A DNA stretch of 32,000 nucleotides from Desulfobulbus propionicus DSM 2032 (GTDB lineage: Bacteria > Desulfobacterota > Desulfobulbia > Desulfobulbales > Desulfobulbaceae): the NCBI RefSeq assembly GCF_000186885.1, contig NC_014972.1, positions 1,860,001-1,892,000 of the forward strand, read 5' to 3'. The number at the start of each line of letters is the position of its first letter. Position 1 is the first letter of the stretch. The position numbers and the translations under genes are program-made. The notes under the pieces are model-generated. The model made no database searches. It was not told where the DNA came from and worked only from the letters and a program-made list of their open reading frames with translations. This document shows, piece by piece, positions 21,853 to 32,000 of the stretch.

Positions 21853-21878
21853 GGGGAGCGGGAGTGCTCCCCGTTTTT
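21853..21878 (+). terminator. Rho-independent terminator
   Basis: GGGGAGC (21853-21859), loop gggagt, GCTCCCC (21866-21872), then GTTTTT. It lies 44 nt after the stop of the preceding gene. Confidence 0.7.
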
Positions 21879-22255: not shown

Positions 22256-22333
22256 CCTCGAAAAATTAAGCGCGAAACCTCGTAATTTTGCGAGTTGTTG
22301 ACCAGGTCCCTTTTTCTTTAAATGACCACCACG
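22256..22333 (+). promoter_or_regulatory. Conserved regulatory module, copy A (operator-like palindrome plus sigma-70-like promoter) upstream of trxB
   Basis: 63 of 78 positions are identical, ungapped, to 26484-26561, and 25 of 26 are identical in the core. It contains CCTCG half-sites 22 bp apart, the palindrome CTCGTAATTTTGCGAG (22279-22294), a -35-like TTGTTG (22295-22300), a 17-nt spacer and a -10-like TTAAAT (22318-22323). Confidence 0.55.
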
Positions 22334-22459
22334 AACAAAGGCGCACCTATCTGCAGCCGGCGAGAATGACCCGCAGACAGGTCTCAAGATATCCCCGTGT
22401 CACAGGGGACACTTCCATCACACGATTTTTGGCCGCGCAGGCGGTCAGGGAGGCAATTC

Positions 22460-23389
22460 ATGGAGAATATCTACGATGTCGTCATCGTCGGCGCCGGGCC
22501 TGCCGGCATGACCGCGGCCATCTATGCCATCCGGGCCAACATGAGGGTCTTGATGCTCGATCGGCTCTCACCGGGCGGACAGATGATCAACACCAACGAG
22601 ATCGAAAACTACACCGGTGCCGGTAAACTGAGCGGCGCCGAGCTGGCGATCAAGATGTTCGAACACACTCAGGAATTGGGGGTGGAATTCGACTACAAGA
22701 CTGTGATCGACATCAGCAACGGCGGTCCGCTCAAGACCCTCACCTGTGAAGAGGACAACACCGTCTACCAAGCGCGGGCGGTCATTCTCGCCACCGGTAC
22801 CGTGCCCCGGCGGCTCGGCGTGCCCGGCGAGGATCAGTGGGCCGGCTCCGGCATCAGCTGGTGCGCCATCTGCGACGGCGCCCAGTATCGCGACAAGGAG
22901 GTGGTGGTCATCGGCGGCGGCAACTCGGCGGTCGAGGAGTCCATCTACCTGGCCGGCATCTGCACCAAGTTGACCATCGTCACCATGTTCGACCTGACCG
23001 CCGACCCCAAGGCCTGCGACCAGCTGCGCAGGATGGCCAACGTCACCATTTACCCTTATCAGGAAGTGCTGGAGTTCACCGGCGAGGACCGTCTCACCGG
23101 CGTGCGCTTCAAATCGACCAAGGAAGACGCCACCGAGCGCTACGTGTCCTGTGACGGCGTGTTCGAGTACATCGGCTTTCAAGCCTCTTCCCAGGCCTTT
23201 GCCAAGCTCGGCATCGTCGACCGCACCGGCTGCATCGAAACCGATGCCCGCATGCGCACCAAGGTCCCGGGCATCTTCGGTGCCGGCGACATCACCGTCA
23301 AACATCTGCGCCAGATCGTCACCGCCTGTTCCGATGGCGCGGTGGCGGCCAACAGCGCAGCCTCCTACGTCGAATCCCTTAAACAGTGA
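22460..23389 (+). CDS. trxB: Thioredoxin-disulfide reductase
   Basis: ATG 22460 follows CAGGGAGG. Motifs are VVIVGAGPAGMTAAIYA (FAD), the redox-active WCAICDG, VVVIGGGNSAVEE (NADPH) and GIFGAGD. 309 aa. Confidence 0.9.
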   Translation: MENIYDVVIVGAGPAGMTAAIYAIRANMRVLMLDRLSPGGQMINTNEIENYTGAGKLSGAELAIKMFEHTQELGVEFDYKTVIDISNGGPLKTLTCEEDNTVYQARAVILATGTVPRRLGVPGEDQWAGSGISWCAICDGAQYRDKEVVVIGGGNSAVEESIYLAGICTKLTIVTMFDLTADPKACDQLRRMANVTIYPYQEVLEFTGEDRLTGVRFKSTKEDATERYVSCDGVFEYIGFQASSQAFAKLGIVDRTGCIETDARMRTKVPGIFGAGDITVKHLRQIVTACSDGAVAANSAASYVESLKQ

Positions 23390-23421
23390 CCTCTTTCCCC
23401 ATAGCCAAGGAGCAACCAGCC

Positions 23422-23730
23422 ATGATCACCGAAATCACCGAAAAAGAGTACGAGTCGCTCGATCACGCCGCCCCCAAGCTGATCGAGTTCTATTCCAAGA
23501 CCTGCGGGCCGTGCAAGATGCTCTCCTTCGTCCTCAAGGACATAGCCAAGCAGAAGCCCGAGTTCCCCATCTACATCATCGATTTCGACGAGAATCGGGA
23601 CCTGAAGGAACGCCTCGGCGTCAAGGGCTTTCCCACCATGCTGTTCTTCAAGGACGGCACCGAGGCCAGCCGCCTGGAAGGCCTCAAGCAAAAACCCGCC
23701 ATCATCAAAGCGATCGAAGCGATCGCCTGA
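23422..23730 (+). CDS. Thioredoxin
   Basis: ATG 23422 lies 9 nt after AAGGAG (23407-23412). 102 aa with the active site SKTCGPCKM and GFPTMLFFKDG. Confidence 0.85.
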   Translation: MITEITEKEYESLDHAAPKLIEFYSKTCGPCKMLSFVLKDIAKQKPEFPIYIIDFDENRDLKERLGVKGFPTMLFFKDGTEASRLEGLKQKPAIIKAIEAIA

Positions 23731-23743
23731 CAAGGAGCCTGTC

Positions 23744-25627
23744 ATGAGCACAAAAGTCCGTTATATCAGCGAGGATCACCTCATCACCCGCCAGAATCGC
23801 GCCGAAAAAGAATTTCTCGCCGCCTTCCAGACCGAGCAGCCAACCTTCGGGCAGCCCAAGGTGGTGGTCAACCCCTACCTGATCAATCCGCTCTGCGCCC
23901 TGGTGCTGTTCACCACCCCGACTCCCGTGGCCCCGACCCTCACCGTCCACGGCAAACGCTATGAGCGCGAGAACCTCACCCACACCTTCAAGGCGGCCAC
24001 CGAGCACATCCTGCCCGTGCTCGGCCTCTACGAGGACTTCGCCAACACCGTGACCGTCAGCCTGCCGGGCGGCGAAACCACCACCCTGACCATCCAGACC
24101 GGCAAGCTGCCCGGCGACGTGTGCCGCTGCCTCAACATCCAGGCCTCGCTCGACTATCTCGGCGACAACCTCATGTTCCTCACCCCGGCCGGCAAGAATC
24201 TGCCCGTCGCCTACGATTACAAGGGCGATATCCGCTGGATGCTCACCGAGAACACCATGTTCGACATCAAGCGGGTGCGAAACGGCAACATCGTCACCGG
24301 CTCCAGCCGCTTCTGCCACATGCCCTACAACTGCACCGGTCTGATCGAGATCAACCTCTTGGGCAAGATCTACAAGGAATACCGCATGCCGGGCAACTAC
24401 CACCACGACCACTTCGAGATGGAGGACGGCAACCTCCTCGCCCTCACCCAGGACTTCTTCCGCGACACGGTGGAGGACATGTGCGTGCTGCTCGACCGCA
24501 ACACCGGCGAGATCCTCAAAACCTGGGACTACCGCGATGCACTGCCCATGGACGTGGCCGGCTCCGGCTCGCAGGACGCCCATGACTGGTTCCACAACAA
24601 CGCCGTCTGGTACGACAAGCGCACCCACAGCCTGACCCTGTCCGGCCGGCATCAGGACGCGGTGATCAACCTCGACTACGAGACCGGCAAGCTCAACTGG
24701 ATCATCGGCGACCCGGAAGGCTGGCCGCAAGACATGGTCGACAAGTACTTCTTCAAGCCGGTGGGCGACCTGTCCAAATTCGACTGGCAGTACGAGCAGC
24801 ACGCCTGCGTGGTCTGCCCGAACGGCGACGTGATGTGCTTCGACAACGGCCAGTACCGCGCCAAGTCCAAGGAGAACTACATCGAGAACCGCAACAACTT
24901 CTCCCGCGGCGTCCGCTACCGCATCGACACCGACAAGATGGAGATCGAGCAGATCTGGCAGTACGGCAAGGAGCGCGGCCAGGAGTTCTTCAGCCCCTAC
25001 ATCTGCAACGTCGAGTACTATGACGAGGGGCACTACATGATCCATTCCGGCGGCATTGGCCGCGAGGACGGCTACGCCGCCAAGGCGCTCGGACCCTTCC
25101 TCAACGCCGACGCCCCGAACGTGGAACTGCGCTCGATCACCGTCGAGGAAAAAGACGGCGTGGTCCTCTACCAGCTGGAAACCGAAGGCAACTTCTACCG
25201 GGCCGAGAAACTGCCGCTCTACCACGGCGGCGACAACCTGGTGCTCGGCGACGGCAAGTTGCTCGGCAGCCTGGAAGTGACCGAAGAGTTCGACACCGTG
25301 CCCGAGGCGGAGGAGGTATTTACCCTGCCGTCCTCTTTTCATAACATCTTCATCGAGGAAGACGAGGACCGGTTCGTCTTCCACGGCCGGTTCGAGAAGG
25401 GCACCCTGGCCATGCTCTGTCTGGAGAACGAGAAGGAGAGCCACAACTACTTCCTCAATACCTCGGCCACCTGGCATCTGGCGATGTGCTCCGGCGCCTT
25501 TCTGGAAAAGGACGAGCGGGACATCAAGATGCATGTGAGCAAGCTGGGCCTCAGCGGGGTGTTCAAGGTCAAGTTGATCATCAATGACAAGAAGTACCAG
25601 ACCGGGGTGACCATCTGCTGTTCATGA
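23744..25627 (+). CDS. Aryl-sulfate sulfotransferase (ASST) family beta-propeller protein, apparently cytoplasmic
   Basis: 627 aa. The blocks VVVNPYLINPLCALV, TVHGK, LGLYEDFANTVTV, AHDWFHNNAVWYD and WQYGKERGQEFFSPY match my recollection of conserved blocks in E. coli AssT. There is no N-terminal signal peptide (MSTKVRYISEDHLITRQNRAEKE...). Confidence 0.75.
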   Translation: MSTKVRYISEDHLITRQNRAEKEFLAAFQTEQPTFGQPKVVVNPYLINPLCALVLFTTPTPVAPTLTVHGKRYERENLTHTFKAATEHILPVLGLYEDFANTVTVSLPGGETTTLTIQTGKLPGDVCRCLNIQASLDYLGDNLMFLTPAGKNLPVAYDYKGDIRWMLTENTMFDIKRVRNGNIVTGSSRFCHMPYNCTGLIEINLLGKIYKEYRMPGNYHHDHFEMEDGNLLALTQDFFRDTVEDMCVLLDRNTGEILKTWDYRDALPMDVAGSGSQDAHDWFHNNAVWYDKRTHSLTLSGRHQDAVINLDYETGKLNWIIGDPEGWPQDMVDKYFFKPVGDLSKFDWQYEQHACVVCPNGDVMCFDNGQYRAKSKENYIENRNNFSRGVRYRIDTDKMEIEQIWQYGKERGQEFFSPYICNVEYYDEGHYMIHSGGIGREDGYAAKALGPFLNADAPNVELRSITVEEKDGVVLYQLETEGNFYRAEKLPLYHGGDNLVLGDGKLLGSLEVTEEFDTVPEAEEVFTLPSSFHNIFIEEDEDRFVFHGRFEKGTLAMLCLENEKESHNYFLNTSATWHLAMCSGAFLEKDERDIKMHVSKLGLSGVFKVKLIINDKKYQTGVTICCS

Positions 25628-25697: not shown

Positions 25698-25756
25698 GCG
25701 GCAAACACAACCGCTCTTCCGCGCCTTGCGCAGTGCCGGGGTGTTTTGTTTGCCGC
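25698..25756 (+). terminator. Inverted repeat downstream of the ASST gene (possible terminator)
   Basis: GCGGCAAACA (25698-25707) pairs with TGTTTGCCGC (25747-25756) as a 10-bp stem around a ~39-nt loop. The 3' arm is T-rich, but no U-tract follows. Confidence 0.3.
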
Positions 25757-25921: not shown

Positions 25922-26281
25922 ATGAATCAGTTCCTTTTTGTCTATGGCACGCTCAAACAGGGCTTCCCCAATCATTCCCTGATGAAAGGAGCCTATTGTA
26001 TCGGTGCCGGTCATACCGCCCGGAAATTCGCCATGTACAAGCACGTCGTCCCCTACGTGATCAAGGGCCAGGCCGTGACCCACATCCATGGCGAAGTCTA
26101 CTCCATCCACCCCTCCATGCTGGAGACATTGGATCTGTTTGAAGGCAATCCGGTGTGGAATTGCCGCGAGCTGGTGGATGTGGTCCTTGATGCCGATGCA
26201 TCGCAGGTATCGGCGTGGATGTACTTCAGCGATACCGCCGTAGGTGATTTGGTCGAATCCGGCGTGTACACCAGAGACTGA
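25922..26281 (+). CDS. Gamma-glutamylcyclotransferase-like (GGACT/AIG2-like) protein
   Basis: MNQFLFVYGTLKQGFPNH (YGTLK motif) and a catalytic-Glu context LDLFEGNP. 119 aa. A possible sigma-70 promoter is TTGCCC (25830-25835), 16 nt, TATCAT (25852-25857). An alternative ATG lies at 25904. Confidence 0.75.
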   Translation: MNQFLFVYGTLKQGFPNHSLMKGAYCIGAGHTARKFAMYKHVVPYVIKGQAVTHIHGEVYSIHPSMLETLDLFEGNPVWNCRELVDVVLDADASQVSAWMYFSDTAVGDLVESGVYTRD

Positions 26282-26483: not shown

Positions 26484-26561
26484 CCTCGTAAGATGAAGTC
26501 CAAAACCTCGTAAGTTTGCGAGTTGTTGGCAAGGCCGCTTTTTCTTTTAATGCCCGACACG
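26484..26561 (+). promoter_or_regulatory. Conserved regulatory module, copy B, upstream of the MFS transporter
   Basis: Ungapped match to 22256-22333 (63/78). CCTCG half-sites lie at 26484 and 26506, the palindrome CTCGTAAGTTTGCGAG at 26507-26522, TTGTTG at 26523-26528, then a 17-nt spacer and TTTAAT at 26546-26551. Confidence 0.55.
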
Positions 26562-26638
26562 CACAGAACAGCCGACCGGTGTGGCCGGCCCCGGCATCGA
26601 TCACGGATTTGATCCCCACAACAAGGAGCGAGGAACTC

Positions 26639-28018
26639 ATGCAGCACGAACTGAACGACACCACCCCCTGCGGCCTGGGCGACAAGTCCGGCATGACCGG
26701 GCGTTTCGCCAACAATTACTTCGACGGCATCCCCGTCCGCGGCATCCATGCGACCCTGTTCTTCATCATCATGGCCGCCTACTTCTTCGAGCAGTTCGAC
26801 AACTGGAACTTCGGCTTCGCCGCTCCGGCCATTGCCCAGTCCTGGGGCCTGAAACCCACCGACATCGCCACCATCCTTTTCTGGTACTTCATCGGCATGA
26901 CCTCGGGCGGCTTTCTCGGCGGCGTCATTTCCGACTTCATCGGCCGGCGGCCAACCTTCCTCATCTCCATCGTTATTTTCTCGGTGAGCTCGGTGATCAC
27001 CGGCTTCACCAATGACTTTGTCGTGTTCACCCTTTTCCGGGCGTTGACCGGTTTTGGCGTGTTCTGCATGATGGTCACCTCCCAGGCCTACATTGCCGAG
27101 ATGGCGCCCTGCGAGAGCCGCGGCATGTGGCAGGGGAGGGTGGCTGCCATCGGCTTCTGCGCCGTGCCGGTGGTCGCCCTCATCTGCCGGATGGTCATTC
27201 CCATGGCCGAGGAAGCCTGGCGGTTCATCTTCTATGCCGGTGGCCTGGGTGTGGTGCCTTTTGTGCTCGGCCTCAAGTACCTCAAGGAGTCGCCCCGCTG
27301 GCTGGTGGCCCATGGCCGCATCAAGGAGGCCGAAGAGATTGTCACCTACCTGACCGGCAAGGATATCGACCTGTCCGAGGCCGCCAAAAACGTACAACCG
27401 AAGATCGCCGTCACCGACGTGCTCATCGGCATGTTCACCCGCAAGTACATCGGCCGCACCTTGTTGATCATGCTGCTGTTCGTCTGCATTACCCCAGCCG
27501 GCTTCCTGCTGACCACCTGGACCACCCAACTGCTCAAGATGCTTGGCTTCTCTGTCAAGGAGAGCCTCACCGCCATGACCATCATCAGCGTGGGCGTGCC
27601 TGTGGGCTGTTTTCTCAATTCGCTGGTCTCCGACCTGGGCGGCCGCAAACTGCCGCTGGCCGTTCTCAGCGTCCTGGCTGCGATCACCGCGCTGATCTTC
27701 GGCGGCATGAAGAGCCTCATCCTGCTCACCATCCTTGGCTTCGCGGTGACCGTTTTCAACATGGCGCTGAACTTCACCCTGTTCTCCTACACAGCGGAGA
27801 GCTACCCGACCCGCATGCGCAACACCGCCACCGGTTTCCACAACGGCCTGGCCCGACTGTCGGTGTCCGCCTCCCAGCCGCTGATTCCCATGATCCATGC
27901 CTCCTACGGGTTCGCCGGCATCTTTACTTCGGTGGCCATCCTCTTCTTCCTGCCGGTCATTCCGCTGCTCATCTGGGGCCAGCGTACCGGCGGCAAGAGT
28001 CTGGAGGAAATCGAATAA
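26639..28018 (+). CDS. MFS transporter
   Basis: ATG 26639 follows AAGGAGCGAGG. It has multiple hydrophobic helices, the MFS loop motif GGVISDFIGRRP, and FRALTGFG. 459 aa. Confidence 0.85.
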   Translation: MQHELNDTTPCGLGDKSGMTGRFANNYFDGIPVRGIHATLFFIIMAAYFFEQFDNWNFGFAAPAIAQSWGLKPTDIATILFWYFIGMTSGGFLGGVISDFIGRRPTFLISIVIFSVSSVITGFTNDFVVFTLFRALTGFGVFCMMVTSQAYIAEMAPCESRGMWQGRVAAIGFCAVPVVALICRMVIPMAEEAWRFIFYAGGLGVVPFVLGLKYLKESPRWLVAHGRIKEAEEIVTYLTGKDIDLSEAAKNVQPKIAVTDVLIGMFTRKYIGRTLLIMLLFVCITPAGFLLTTWTTQLLKMLGFSVKESLTAMTIISVGVPVGCFLNSLVSDLGGRKLPLAVLSVLAAITALIFGGMKSLILLTILGFAVTVFNMALNFTLFSYTAESYPTRMRNTATGFHNGLARLSVSASQPLIPMIHASYGFAGIFTSVAILFFLPVIPLLIWGQRTGGKSLEEIE

Positions 28019-28080: not shown

Positions 28081-28289
28081 CCAGTGTGAGACCAGCCGTG
28101 CTTCGCTGCAACGGCGACCAACGGATATTGCGTTGTGGTCATGGATCGCCCGAGCGGTGATCGACACAGCCAATGTTTTCCCCCATTGGGACGTTTTTCC
28201 ATTTCCTCCCTCCTCCCTGTACGCTATAAACCATGGAGTATAGCGTAACGTTGCACTGCAGCTCTCCACCATACTGGAGCAACGAGGCC

Positions 28290-30173
28290 ATGTCCGAGAG
28301 AACACCGCAGCCGTCAACCGTCCTTGCCTGTTTGTCGATCCTCCCCTGCCTCCTCGCCCTGCTGCTCATCGGGCCAACGCCCCTTCGGGCCGCAGAATCC
28401 CAGCCGCTTGGCGACAATGAAAAACGGGTCGTGATCCTCTACTCGCAGCCGCGCGATTTTCCCGCCACCGAAATGGTGGAACAGGGAATCCAGGAGGCGC
28501 TGAACGCGGAGCGGCGTTTGACCGTCCAGCTCTTTTCCGAGTATCTCGATCTCTCCCGCTTTCGTGATACCCCCCAGCGTCAGGCCTTGGCGGACCTGCT
28601 TGATCAGCGCTACAGCAATGGCCAGATTGCCCTGCTCATCTGTGTGGACGTCCCGGCTGCCTTGTTTCTCATGGAATATGGGGAGCAACTGTTTCCGGAA
28701 ATCCCGGTGGTGATGTGCGCCATCCCCGAGCGGCTCAAGGATTCCTTGCTCGCCTCGCCGCTTGGCGGACGGGTCAGTGGTATCATCGAGCCCGCCCTGG
28801 TGGCGCGGCAACTGGTGGAATCGGCCTTTCTGTTCAAGCCCGCCACCAAGCAGGCGGTGCTGGTGGCCGGAGCTTTTGAAAACGACCAGGCCCGTGCCGT
28901 TGCCCTGCGCGAGGCGCTGCAAACCGTGCGGCCGGATGTGGAACTGATTGATCTGACCGGACGTTCGCTGGGAGAGATTCTGGAACGGTGCGAGAAGCTG
29001 CCGCGGGATGCGGTCATTTTTTTCTCGACCCTTTTCGTCGACGGCAAAGGTCGCAGTTTTGTGCCCAAAAATGTCCTGCAGTCGATCGCCGCCGTCACTG
29101 ACAAGCCGATTTTCGGCCCCTACGAATCCTATATGGGGTATGGAATTGTTGGCGGTCCGTTGATTTCCCTGCGCCTCGAGGGCAAGATGGCCGCCGAGGC
29201 GGCCTTGCGTATCCTGGGAGGCCAGCCCTTCGAGGCTGGATCGTTCAGCGGCGTCAACACCCAGCGCACCCTCTATGATTGGCGGCAGCTCAACCGCCAT
29301 GCCATCGCGGACACTCTCCTGCCACCCAAGAGCACAATCCTCTTTCGTGAAGCAACCCTCTGGGATCAATATAAGTATTCGCTGATCGGCATCGTGGCCC
29401 TGGTCACCTTGCAGTCGCTGCTGATCATCGGATTGGTGGTCAATCTCCGCCAAAGAAAGAAGGCGGAGACCGCGTTGCGTGCCAGTCAGCGAGAACTGCA
29501 AACCCTGGCCGGACGTCTGATTTCCTCGCAGGAGGAGGAATTGAGCCGCTTGGCGCGCGAATTTCATGACGATTTTGCCCAGCGTCTGGCCGCGGTGGCC
29601 ATCGAGACCGGGACCCTGGAGATTCACTCGCAGCAGCTCGACCCTCCGGCCAGAGAAAAGATCGGTCACGTCAAGGATCAGCTGATCAGGCTCTCCGATG
29701 ACATTCACGCCATCTCCAGGGAACTGCACCCGGCAATTCTCAAGGATCTCGGCCTGGGGCGGGCGGTCAACTCCCTGTGTATCAATTTTGCCGACCGCGA
29801 GAATATTCCGGTGGATTGTCATTTCGAGCCCCTCCCCGACGATATTCCGCCCCAGACCTCCCTGTGCATCTACCGGGTGATCCAGGAAAGTCTGCGCAAC
29901 ATAGCCAAGCACGCCCGTGCCCGGCACGTCGATATTTCCCTCAAGCTCTCGGCCAATCATCTGCTGGCGACCATCGAGGACGACGGGGCCGGTTTCGAGC
30001 CCAAATGCGCCCGCCACACCCCGGGCATCGGTCTGGCGAGCATGCGGGAGCGGGTTCAATACGTCAAGGGCGAGTTCACCATCCAGTCCGAACCTGGACA
30101 GGGAACGGTGATCGAACTGTCCATTCCCCTGCAGAGGGTGGAGTATGAAAAAACCAAGAATACTGTTGGCTGA
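28290..30173 (+). CDS. Sensor histidine kinase (HisKA_3/NarX-type core) with a periplasmic substrate-binding-protein-like sensor domain
   Basis: Signal/TM LACLSILPCLLALLLIG, a ~330-aa periplasmic domain, a second TM SLIGIVALVTLQSLLIIGLVV, a coiled coil, the H-box EFHDDFAQRLAAV, the N-box ESLRNIAKHA, and DDGAGF/GIGLASMRERV. An alternative upstream ATG lies at 28233. Confidence 0.85.
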   Translation: MSERTPQPSTVLACLSILPCLLALLLIGPTPLRAAESQPLGDNEKRVVILYSQPRDFPATEMVEQGIQEALNAERRLTVQLFSEYLDLSRFRDTPQRQALADLLDQRYSNGQIALLICVDVPAALFLMEYGEQLFPEIPVVMCAIPERLKDSLLASPLGGRVSGIIEPALVARQLVESAFLFKPATKQAVLVAGAFENDQARAVALREALQTVRPDVELIDLTGRSLGEILERCEKLPRDAVIFFSTLFVDGKGRSFVPKNVLQSIAAVTDKPIFGPYESYMGYGIVGGPLISLRLEGKMAAEAALRILGGQPFEAGSFSGVNTQRTLYDWRQLNRHAIADTLLPPKSTILFREATLWDQYKYSLIGIVALVTLQSLLIIGLVVNLRQRKKAETALRASQRELQTLAGRLISSQEEELSRLAREFHDDFAQRLAAVAIETGTLEIHSQQLDPPAREKIGHVKDQLIRLSDDIHAISRELHPAILKDLGLGRAVNSLCINFADRENIPVDCHFEPLPDDIPPQTSLCIYRVIQESLRNIAKHARARHVDISLKLSANHLLATIEDDGAGFEPKCARHTPGIGLASMRERVQYVKGEFTIQSEPGQGTVIELSIPLQRVEYEKTKNTVG

Positions 30174-30783
30174 TGACCATCGCATGGTGGCCGAGGGGCT
30201 GCGCGGCCTGCTGGAGCCGGACTATCAACTGGTCGGCATCGTCGAGGATGGCCGGGCCCTGCTTGAGGCGGCGGACCGGCTCATGCCCGACGTGGTGGTG
30301 GCGGATGTCTCCATGCCGCTGCTGAACGGGATCGAGGCGGTACGGCAGCTCAAGAAGAAAAACAAGGAAATCGCGGTGGTCTTTCTCACCATGCACCTCG
30401 ATGTCGCCTACGCGGCCAGTGCCTTCGAAGCCGGCGCCTCGGGATATGTGCTCAAACATTCGGCTCCGTCGGAGCTGCTGGTCGCCATCGGCAGCGCGCT
30501 CAAGGGACGAACCTACATCACGCCGTTGCTGGCCGGTGAACTGCTCAACTACCAGCGCAACCGGCCCAGCGGCGACCAAGAGGGCGGGGTTGCCCGTCTG
30601 ACCGCACGCCAGCGCGAGGTGCTGCAGTTGATTGCCGAGGGACTTTCGGTCAAGGAGGCCGCCGCCGTGCTCGGTATTTCCTCCCGCACGGTGGAGTTTC
30701 ATAAATACAGCATGATGGAGATCTTGGGACTGAAAAGTTCAGCTGAATTGATGCGCTTTGCCGTCGAACACGGCATCAAGTGA
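30145..30783 (+). CDS. NarL/FixJ-family response regulator (REC plus LuxR-type HTH)
   Basis: ILLADDH...VVVADVSMP (phospho-acceptor Asp) and LTARQREVLQLIAEGLSVKEAAAVLGISSRTVEFH. The start overlaps the kinase gene by 29 nt. Confidence 0.9.
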   Translation: MKKPRILLADDHRMVAEGLRGLLEPDYQLVGIVEDGRALLEAADRLMPDVVVADVSMPLLNGIEAVRQLKKKNKEIAVVFLTMHLDVAYAASAFEAGASGYVLKHSAPSELLVAIGSALKGRTYITPLLAGELLNYQRNRPSGDQEGGVARLTARQREVLQLIAEGLSVKEAAAVLGISSRTVEFHKYSMMEILGLKSSAELMRFAVEHGIK

Positions 30784-30949: not shown

Positions 30950-31885
30950 TCAAAAGCTCCAGATTTTCCCCAGCTTGATCTCGATGCGGATATCATCGGA
31001 GGCGGTGGCCACGTCGTAATCCCGCACCACCGGAACAAACAGACCCGCGCCCAGCCACATATTCCATTGCGGCATCACATAGTTGGCCGTTGGGCCCACA
31101 TACACTTCAGTGGCGTCATTGTTCATATCCCTGCCGGCGCGTTCCCACGAGCGGCAGTTTTCAGCGGTGAATTCCAGACCGATGTCGAAATGCGGATTGA
31201 ACACGTAATGGTAGCTGCCGGTCATGGTCCAGGCGGTATCCTTTTTCACCCCCTGGTTGCCGGTTTCGGTCGGTTGCACAAAGCCCAGGTCCCAGTCCAC
31301 CCGGTGCTTGGGATGCCAGACCTTGGTGACGCCGATCTTGGCATTGTAGGACCAGACATCGCCGCCAACCGGATGATCCGGGCCTTCCTGGCCGGTGGGC
31401 ATGTTGACGCCCAGGGTGGCGGCCAGGCTCAGAGGATCGCCCAGCCGCTGGGACATGATGGCGTAGGAGGCGCCCAGGGCGAAATCTGTCGGCCCATCGA
31501 TGCGATCCGAAGCTAAGTTGCCGTAGGCGTCGCGGTGATTGTTGATGTATCCCGGCACAAAGGCGATCTCGACCCGCTCGGTGAGGCCGTAGCGCAGCTT
31601 GAGCAGGTACAGTTCGCTCTCCATGGTCCTGGCGCCAAAGCCGGCGTCGTCGACGATGTCATCCTTGTCTCGATAGGAAAAATTCAACGCGCTCAGCAGC
31701 AGCCCCTTGGGCACCAGTCCGCCGCCGCTGATGGCGGAGTTGACCGGCGTGCCGCTCAGTCCTCCCATCTTTTCCGTTTGCGGCTGTTCGGTCACTGTGC
31801 TGTCCGCAGCCGCCGCATGCATGGCTGTCAGACAGGAGAGCATCATGCAGCAAACGAATGCCTGGTGTGTTTTCTTTTCAATCAT
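30950..31885 (-). CDS. Outer-membrane beta-barrel protein (MetA-pathway/'transporter' OMP-like)
   Basis: ATG 31885 is preceded by GGAGGG. Signal peptide FVCCMMLSCLTAMHAAAA|D. It has alternating amphipathic beta-strand patterns and a C-terminal aromatic residue (KLGKIWSF), which is typical of BAM substrates. Confidence 0.7.
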   Translation of the reverse strand: MIEKKTHQAFVCCMMLSCLTAMHAAAADSTVTEQPQTEKMGGLSGTPVNSAISGGGLVPKGLLLSALNFSYRDKDDIVDDAGFGARTMESELYLLKLRYGLTERVEIAFVPGYINNHRDAYGNLASDRIDGPTDFALGASYAIMSQRLGDPLSLAATLGVNMPTGQEGPDHPVGGDVWSYNAKIGVTKVWHPKHRVDWDLGFVQPTETGNQGVKKDTAWTMTGSYHYVFNPHFDIGLEFTAENCRSWERAGRDMNNDATEVYVGPTANYVMPQWNMWLGAGLFVPVVRDYDVATASDDIRIEIKLGKIWSF

Positions 31886-32000
31886 CCAACCCTCCATTGT
31901 GTCAAAAATACCGTGGCAACATGAATCGTGCAGGAACGGCTGGCCAAATTCGACCAACAGGGGTGCCGTTCGTTGGCCCACTAAACCAAAGCAGAGGGAG

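Follow-up and report, generated by a model that had tools for sequence, protein, structure and literature searches.

Why should a homologue of the aryl-sulfate sulfotransferases (ASST) be encoded together with a thioredoxin reductase and a thioredoxin? The question is raised by a 32,000 nt stretch of the Desulfobulbus propionicus DSM 2032 genome (assembly GCF_000186885.1, contig NC_014972.1, positions 1,860,001–1,892,000, forward strand; hereafter the window), and bears on a family of sulfotransferases, independent of 3′-phosphoadenosine 5′-phosphosulfate (PAPS), whose physiological role is not established according to reviews. A first-pass annotation of the window had described a trxB gene with a CAIC motif, a trx gene with a CGPC motif and an ASST gene, separated by gaps of 32 nt (trxB-trx) and 13 nt (trx-ASST), all of which was borne out (Table 1). 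Each gene is preceded by a ribosome-binding site, and the three form a single operon bracketed by terminator-like hairpins.

The TrxB/Trx pair is dedicated to the ASST, a coupling which, unlike leaderless ASST itself, appears to be undescribed; our literature searches on ASST with thioredoxin, sulfite or Desulfovibrio returned only Dsb-related work and no paper tying a cytoplasmic ASST to thioredoxin. A scan with one genome per species gave at least 561 ASST relatives, and linkage was judged on the best 80 loci, 44 of which were well flanked (at least 3.5 kb on either side). Both TrxB (56–93% identical) and Trx (41–92% identical) were present within 4 kb of the ASST gene at 40/44 well-flanked loci, and the survey of trxB/trx co-occurrence that the first-pass annotation had called for thus gave a conserved linkage, far beyond chance. 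The genes come in at least five arrangements (trxB-trx-ASST, trx-ASST-trxB, ASST-trxB-trx, divergent, and ASST-trx-importer-trxB), and the linked loci span the Desulfobulbales, Desulfobacterales, Desulfovibrionales and Bacillota, hence two phyla. Of 401 evenly sampled Desulfobacterota genomes, seven carry the ASST and the identical seven carry the TrxB subfamily, with the two genes adjoining each other. Among 401 Bacillota_B genomes the TrxB subfamily (62–64% identity) was represented by five copies in four genomes, each beside an ASST gene, with the next-best TrxB no more than 48% identical, and in 300 Clostridia genomes it was found in the seed genome only. At three further loci an unrelated Trx/TrxB lineage (25–35% identity) directly follows the ASST gene, which suggests independent recruitment. 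In a maximum-likelihood tree, the linked ASSTs fell into two clades, one from Desulfobacterota and one from Bacillota, and nested between these was a Desulfitobacterium clade without linkage. Fusions of ASST with Trx were not found among ten longer representatives.

Both proteins of the pair depart from the canonical motifs. The operon TrxB has the features of the low-Mr fold (PF07992, E = 1e-46; GAGPAG and CAIC, the latter also in 65/72 ASST-linked TrxBs) and scores 314 bits against TIGR01292, under the cut-off of 343. The NADPH motif HRRxxxR is missing, with HRR changed to MFD and three residues deleted, such that the site reads MFD-LTADPKAC, and any binding of NADPH by the protein is probably non-canonical. 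A second, housekeeping TrxB encoded elsewhere in the genome scores 378 bits, over the family cut-off, and carries HRRGELR. Throughout the linked subfamily (the window copy and 72 loci) the segment replacing HRRxxxR reads L-T-A-D-P-x-A-C-D and contributes an extra conserved cysteine. The operon Trx (PF00085, E = 1.7e-20) keeps CGPC but has Thr in place of the canonical Trp (TCGPC for WCGPC), a replacement shared by all of the linked subfamily, and reaches 71 bits against TIGR01068 (cut-off 96.8); KTCGPCKM was present in 57/68 linked Trx, and WCGPC in none of the 68. A non-housekeeping second Trx/TrxR pair in a sulfate reducer has a precedent in Desulfovibrio vulgaris, where Trx3 and TR3 are encoded in an operon with a Crp-type regulator and the deletion phenotype is rescued by sulfite (bioRxiv 10.1101/2024.09.27.615472). 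The two systems share the proximity of a cAMP-type regulator, and Crp-family regulators often adjoin ASST genes in our collection of loci. They differ in that the active site of Trx3 is atypical, with CGPC kept in the window Trx, and in that no ASST has been reported in the Trx3/TR3 operon.

On its sequence, the ASST is a cytoplasmic protein. The first-pass annotation had noted the lack of a signal peptide, and this held: no in-frame start was found 5′ of position 23744, because the open reading frame opens there after a stop codon, the hydrophilic N-terminus coincides with the start point shared by 120 homologues, its most hydrophobic 12-residue window scores 0.19 versus 2.4–3.7 in exported relatives, and a twin-arginine motif was not found in it. 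The 627 aa protein matches Arylsulfotran_N (PF17425) and Arylsulfotrans (PF05935) with an E-value of 2.6e-104, and E. coli ASST was the sole match in a PDB sequence search. His353 pairs with the sulfo-carrier His436 of the E. coli enzyme, with the H436N entry 4p04 differing at exactly that column, and E. coli His356 and Arg374 have their aligned counterparts in the DWFH-N and SGRHQ blocks. The catalytic set is complete, consisting of Tyr195, His221, His284, Asn286 and Arg302 (each at least 90% conserved) and the nucleophile His353, and alignment with the E. coli enzyme and Dh_ASST_6, the comparison proposed in the first-pass annotation, showed that all catalytic His and Arg residues are retained. 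The protein can be classed by sequence as a homologue of the PAPS-independent aryl-sulfate sulfotransferases (EC 2.8.2.22) with a full catalytic set, and sulfuryl transfer is predicted from its relatives. The AlphaFold2 model (mean predicted local distance difference test score, pLDDT, of 93) consists of an N-terminal Ig-like domain, a six-bladed propeller and a C-terminal β-sandwich, with strands up to residue 626, and a Foldseek search with this model gave E. coli ASST (3elq/4p04) as best match with TM-scores of 0.6–0.67, followed by Cpz4.

Leaderless ASST is not a novelty as such, because enzymes from Desulfitobacterium characterised for biocatalysis belong to the same leaderless family. 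The crystal structure of D. hafniense ASTB (Dh_ASST_6, UniProt B8FZF6, 626 aa) comprises an N-terminal domain, a six-bladed propeller and a C-terminal β-sandwich, with the sulfo group on His350, support from His283, His220, Arg301, Asn285 and Tyr194, and a disordered stretch near the pocket entrance at residues 576–590 (bioRxiv 10.64898/2026.10.08.757636). The window ASST has the traits of this Desulfitobacterium-type three-domain clade: like D. hafniense ASSTA and ASTB it is leaderless and of ~620–630 aa, it shares the C-terminal β-sandwich, the pocket-entrance loop is disordered in the crystal (576–590) and in our model (577–590), and Tyr194, His220, His283, Asn285, Arg301 and His350 of the D. 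hafniense enzyme correspond to Tyr195, His221, His284, Asn286, Arg302 and His353, respectively. Identity between the Desulfitobacterium enzymes and the window ASST is ~45–55%, as judged from members of the Desulfitobacterium clade, and the studied enzymes probably fall in paralogue clades that do not lie beside this TrxB/Trx, a placement made by length and by a D. dehalogenans cluster member only. The papers on the Desulfitobacterium ASSTs make no mention of a cysteine or of thioredoxin (PMC11576661; bioRxiv 10.64898/2026.10.08.757636).

The first-pass annotation had also presented the operon as a reductive counterpart of assT-dsbL-dsbI. AssT of E. coli CFT073 (3ELQ, 3ETS, 4P04) indeed shares the propeller, the N-terminal Ig-like domain and the sulfo-histidine ping-pong set with the window ASST at ~20% identity, and each is encoded with a private thiol-disulfide pair. 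However, E. coli AssT is a periplasmic protein with a signal peptide and a structural Cys418–Cys424 disulfide, and has no C-terminal domain, and its partners DsbL and DsbI are DsbA/DsbB-like oxidants, whereas the window ASST has neither leader nor Cys418–Cys424 loop and has the TrxB/Trx reductase system, not DsbL/DsbI, as neighbours. The mirror image is an analogy only, as the disulfide loop served by DsbL/DsbI is absent here.

Two cysteine features had been highlighted for a possible redox role, the CVVC motif and the C-terminal TICCS. Both are present: CVVC is Cys355-Cys358 (DNA 24806–24817), two residues past His353, at a place where E. coli reads HTAWIS and has no cysteine. Over the 121 closest homologues neither proved to be conserved, as Cys358 is present in 68/121, compared with 99/121 for Cys355, and since the second cysteine is limited to a subset, CVVC is not a family trait. 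Cys358 is essentially confined to the Desulfobacterota and is Leu in 9/10 thioredoxin-linked Bacillota enzymes. In the CCS tail, Cys625 is rare (11/121) and Cys626 (77/121) is absent in Bacillota, and we rejected the tail as an equivalent of that of the PAPS reductase CysH. The best conserved cysteine is Cys582 (119/121), followed by Cys129 (105/121) and Cys421 (104/121), and in a comparison of four clades Cys582 was present in all sequences, Cys421 in ~90%, and Cys355 in three of the four clades, with Ala in its place in the ASTB-like clade. Cys582 sits on the mobile pocket-entrance loop (Table 1). Cys355 and Cys421 open the inner strands of blades 5 and 6 of the AlphaFold2 model, right after the active-site His353 and Tyr419-Ile420, respectively, and may thus lie close to the sulfuryl site, by analogy with Asn286, which follows His284 and is a sulfate contact in the crystal. 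A correlation of the loop cysteine with thioredoxin linkage was also considered, and is uninformative because this cysteine is nearly universal. The only non-cysteine residues separating linked from unlinked ASST clades were Leu53, Pro148, Gln236, Thr518 and Pro520.

The linkage extends to transport. Clustering of neighbouring genes over 107 ASST loci placed an anion importer next to the ASST gene at 74/107, from three unrelated families (CitMHS-like 44, DASS 15, MFS 16). In the window this is an MFS protein downstream of the operon, homologues of which (50–89% identical) adjoin ASST genes in two phyla, and which is probably the substrate importer, co-regulated with trxB-trx-ASST. The hosts of the best 80 loci are mostly genera named as sulfate- or sulfite-reducers, including Desulfitobacterium, which respires sulfite but not sulfate. 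Sulfite reductase genes (dsrA in four, asrC in one) scored over the family cut-off in 5/5 module genomes tested and in 0/14 controls. The module of importer, TrxB, Trx and ASST recurs in anaerobes with sulfite reductases.

Co-inheritance of a private reductant with an enzyme and its importer implies a pathway that consumes reducing equivalents, and a thiol acceptor with thioredoxin-dependent release of sulfite would be the simplest chemistry to fit a sulfo-histidine enzyme with such a reductant. There is a parallel in the PAPS/APS (adenosine 5′-phosphosulfate) reductase CysH, where a cysteine within a mobile segment takes over activated sulfate and the resulting S-sulfocysteine is cleaved by thioredoxin to give sulfite. 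The parallel is one of logic only, without homology, and the donor would here be a sulfate ester via sulfo-histidine and not a sulfonucleotide, but two things that such a mechanism requires are present, namely a dedicated Trx and, in the mobile loop, an invariant cysteine. We propose that the cell takes up a sulfate ester, aryl or other, from which His353 receives the sulfuryl group, the step common to all ASSTs; the activation of aryl sulfates suffices for the regeneration of PAPS in vitro. In place of a phenol, a thiol would then accept the group, with Cys582 on the mobile loop, Cys355, Cys421 or thioredoxin itself as candidates, thioredoxin would resolve the S-sulfocysteine with release of sulfite as in CysH, and the TrxB paralogue would re-reduce thioredoxin, probably with a donor other than canonically bound NADPH. 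DsrAB would finally respire the sulfite, bypassing the ATP-dependent activation of sulfate. We infer acceptor (a thiol), product (sulfite) and electron donor from this combination of features, and give the reading as a whole, an importer-fed module in which a thiol takes the sulfuryl group from sulfo-histidine and Trx then frees sulfite to be used by DsrAB, a probability of roughly 0.4. The module might then tentatively be called an ATP-independent 'sulfate-ester:thioredoxin sulforeductase', converting imported aryl sulfates directly to sulfite via sulfo-histidine and S-sulfocysteine, a designation we hold with slightly more reserve. No description of a direct conversion of sulfate esters to sulfite via ASST was found in the literature. 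The earlier suggestion of a redox-gated or thiol-dependent cytoplasmic enzyme accordingly survives in part, with the missing leader supporting the location and the linkage supporting a dedicated pair, but CVVC and CCS do not qualify as its basis since they are not conserved; that the chemistry may differ from classical phenol sulfate transfer is a reasonable suspicion.

Several observations weigh against the proposed sulfite release. Desulfitobacterium relatives move sulfate from p-nitrophenyl sulfate to phenols with no reductant or thioredoxin (PMC11576661; bioRxiv 10.64898/2026.10.08.757636), the published ASTB pocket is narrow (bioRxiv 10.64898/2026.10.08.757636), and sulfite formation by characterised relatives has not been reported in the literature. 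No cysteine specific to the thioredoxin-linked ASST clades was found. Unlinked cytoplasmic paralogues and many exported homologues have Cys582 as well, so that this residue has some role independent of thioredoxin. A full-length cytoplasmic ASST is encoded by 20 Bacillota_B genomes, about 16 of which have no member of the TrxB subfamily, and the seven positive Desulfobacterota genomes represent two genera only, so that as kin they do not count as independent. The association of the module with sulfite-reducing hosts, which is suggestive, is partly phylogenetic, and dsrAB was near the ASST gene at only 3/107 loci.

Some of these facts lend weight to the main rival, in which the ASST is an ordinary sulfotransferase acting between imported phenols, and TrxB/Trx keep Cys582, Cys355 and Cys421 reduced or strip accidental S-sulfonation or oxidation from them. 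Efficient sulfotransfer by relatives without thioredoxin, conserved cysteines in unlinked and exported homologues, and the many genomes with an ASST but no pair are all what maintenance would predict. Yet a strictly anaerobic cytoplasm with housekeeping TrxB and Trx should need no private, co-transferred pair for this purpose, let alone one with an altered cofactor site and altered active-site motifs that occurs only next to ASST genes; repair of S-sulfocysteine would itself yield sulfite, and the coupling to import is left unexplained. We consider this explanation rather unlikely, if serious.

A more doubtful alternative is that TrxB and Trx act at a different point of the pathway, by reducing the imported substrate, or its quinone or disulfide form, to the phenol or thiol used by the ASST, or by acting on a second ASST-like protein. 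Such a protein does exist, a paralogue of ~490 aa (PF14269) encoded between ASST and trxB at several loci, and short-chain dehydrogenase/reductase (SDR) and alkylsulfatase genes are found in some clusters, but the constant partners in the window and at most loci are the importer, TrxB, Trx and the 627 aa ASST only, and the loci have nothing else in common that could be a thioredoxin substrate, which makes this explanation improbable. That trxB and trx, general redox genes of ubiquitous families, merely happen to lie upstream is almost certainly wrong, as it is contradicted by the linkage counts, the retention of the pair through changes in gene order, the separate housekeeping TrxB and the terminators bracketing the three genes.

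The second ASST-like protein is itself leaderless (~490 aa, PF14269/PF05935), and its gene lies between the importer or ASST gene and trxB in several clusters (loci L063, L064, L077, L093, L096, L097 (5907–7481, reverse strand) and L115). The family is very large in gut Clostridia, and no Trx fusions were found among its top 120 relatives. Among the 107 loci SDR genes were found at 11 and an alkylsulfatase of the metallo-β-lactamase (MBL) type at five. The latter (Lactamase_B and Alkyl_sulf_dimr) is located directly 3′ of the ASST/thioredoxin genes in the Desulfovibrionaceae loci L044, L045/L048, L053 and L070, and such neighbours suggest broader organosulfate-utilisation islands. Two ASST paralogues are split by a single TAG codon (G001:C19:23773-25590, locus L110, and G004:C3:22606-24465), and the Desulfosporosinus genome has PylS genes. 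We rejected pyrrolysine insertion for these, as the frame 5′ of the TAG is unlike the family N-terminus, and truncation is therefore likelier.

Around the operon, the window contains further genes and elements (Table 1). Two copies of an 82 nt element form a direct repeat with 80% identity, one before trxB and one before the MFS gene, and in relatives within the genus a 23 nt core recurs in either place. The element is probably an operator for the adjacent sensor kinase and LuxR-type regulator, which are syntenic with the ASST and MFS genes in close Desulfobulbaceae; a σ54 promoter was discarded as an explanation by inspection, since the GG/GC spacing does not fit. The Phenol_MetA_deg gene is syntenic within the genus and is also found after trxB at Maridesulfovibrio loci. 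A gene for a 119 aa γ-glutamylcyclotransferase-like protein (GGACT/AIG2; 25922–26281, forward strand), with its own promoter-like site, occupies the interval from the ASST terminator to the control element of the MFS gene, and is not kept in the module elsewhere.

Table 1. Features of the trxB-trx-ASST locus and its surroundings (positions within the window)
Feature	Position	Strand	Remarks
Terminator-like hairpin	21853-21872		Closes gene upstream of trxB
82 nt element, copy 1	22256-22337	+	~120 nt before trxB; candidate operator/promoter module
trxB	22460-23389	+	Low-Mr thioredoxin reductase paralogue (Pyr_redox_2); ATG 22460, GGGAGG ribosome-binding site; CAIC
trx	23422-23730	+	Thioredoxin; active site K-T-C-G-P-C-K-M; ATG 23422
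ASST homologue, 627 aa	23744-25627	+	ATG 23744; AAGGAG 7 nt 5′ of start
His353-Ala-Cys355-Val-Val-Cys358	24800-24817	+	His353 predicted sulfo-histidine carrier; aligns with E. coli His436 and Dh_ASST_6 His350
Mobile loop, residues 577-590	25472-25513	+	L-A-M-C-S-G-A-F-L-E; Cys582 (codon 25487-25489); only stretch with pLDDT <50
Terminator-like hairpin	25721-25744	+	3′ end of trxB-trx-ASST unit
82 nt element, copy 2	26484-26565	+	~75 nt before MFS gene
MFS importer, aromatic-acid/H+ symporter type	26639-28018	+	TIGR00895 best (167 bits), then MhpT, PcaK
Sensor histidine kinase	28233-30173	+	Pfam; candidate regulator of both 82 nt elements
LuxR-type response regulator	30145-30783	+	Pfam; candidate regulator of both 82 nt elements
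Phenol_MetA_deg outer-membrane protein	30950-31981	-	PF13557; possible entry channel for aromatic substrate

The dedicated, co-inherited thioredoxin system and importer provide a first concrete and testable lead on the physiological role of ASSTs. For biocatalysis, they draw attention to an invariant loop cysteine that is undiscussed in the published structural work (bioRxiv 10.64898/2026.10.08.757636). Should the reaction yield sulfite, dissimilatory sulfite reduction would draw on sulfate esters and be spared the two ATP equivalents of sulfate activation; among such esters are the phenyl, cresyl and indoxyl sulfates that the host supplies in the gut, as well as the organosulfates of sediments and soils. 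This would account for the retention of ASST genes by Desulfitobacterium, would allow organosulfate respiration without Sat/Apr in sulfite-respiring anaerobes, among them gut Desulfovibrio and Mailhella and the non-sulfate-reducing Desulfitobacterium species, and would change how the H2S formed by gut and sediment sulfate reducers is budgeted.

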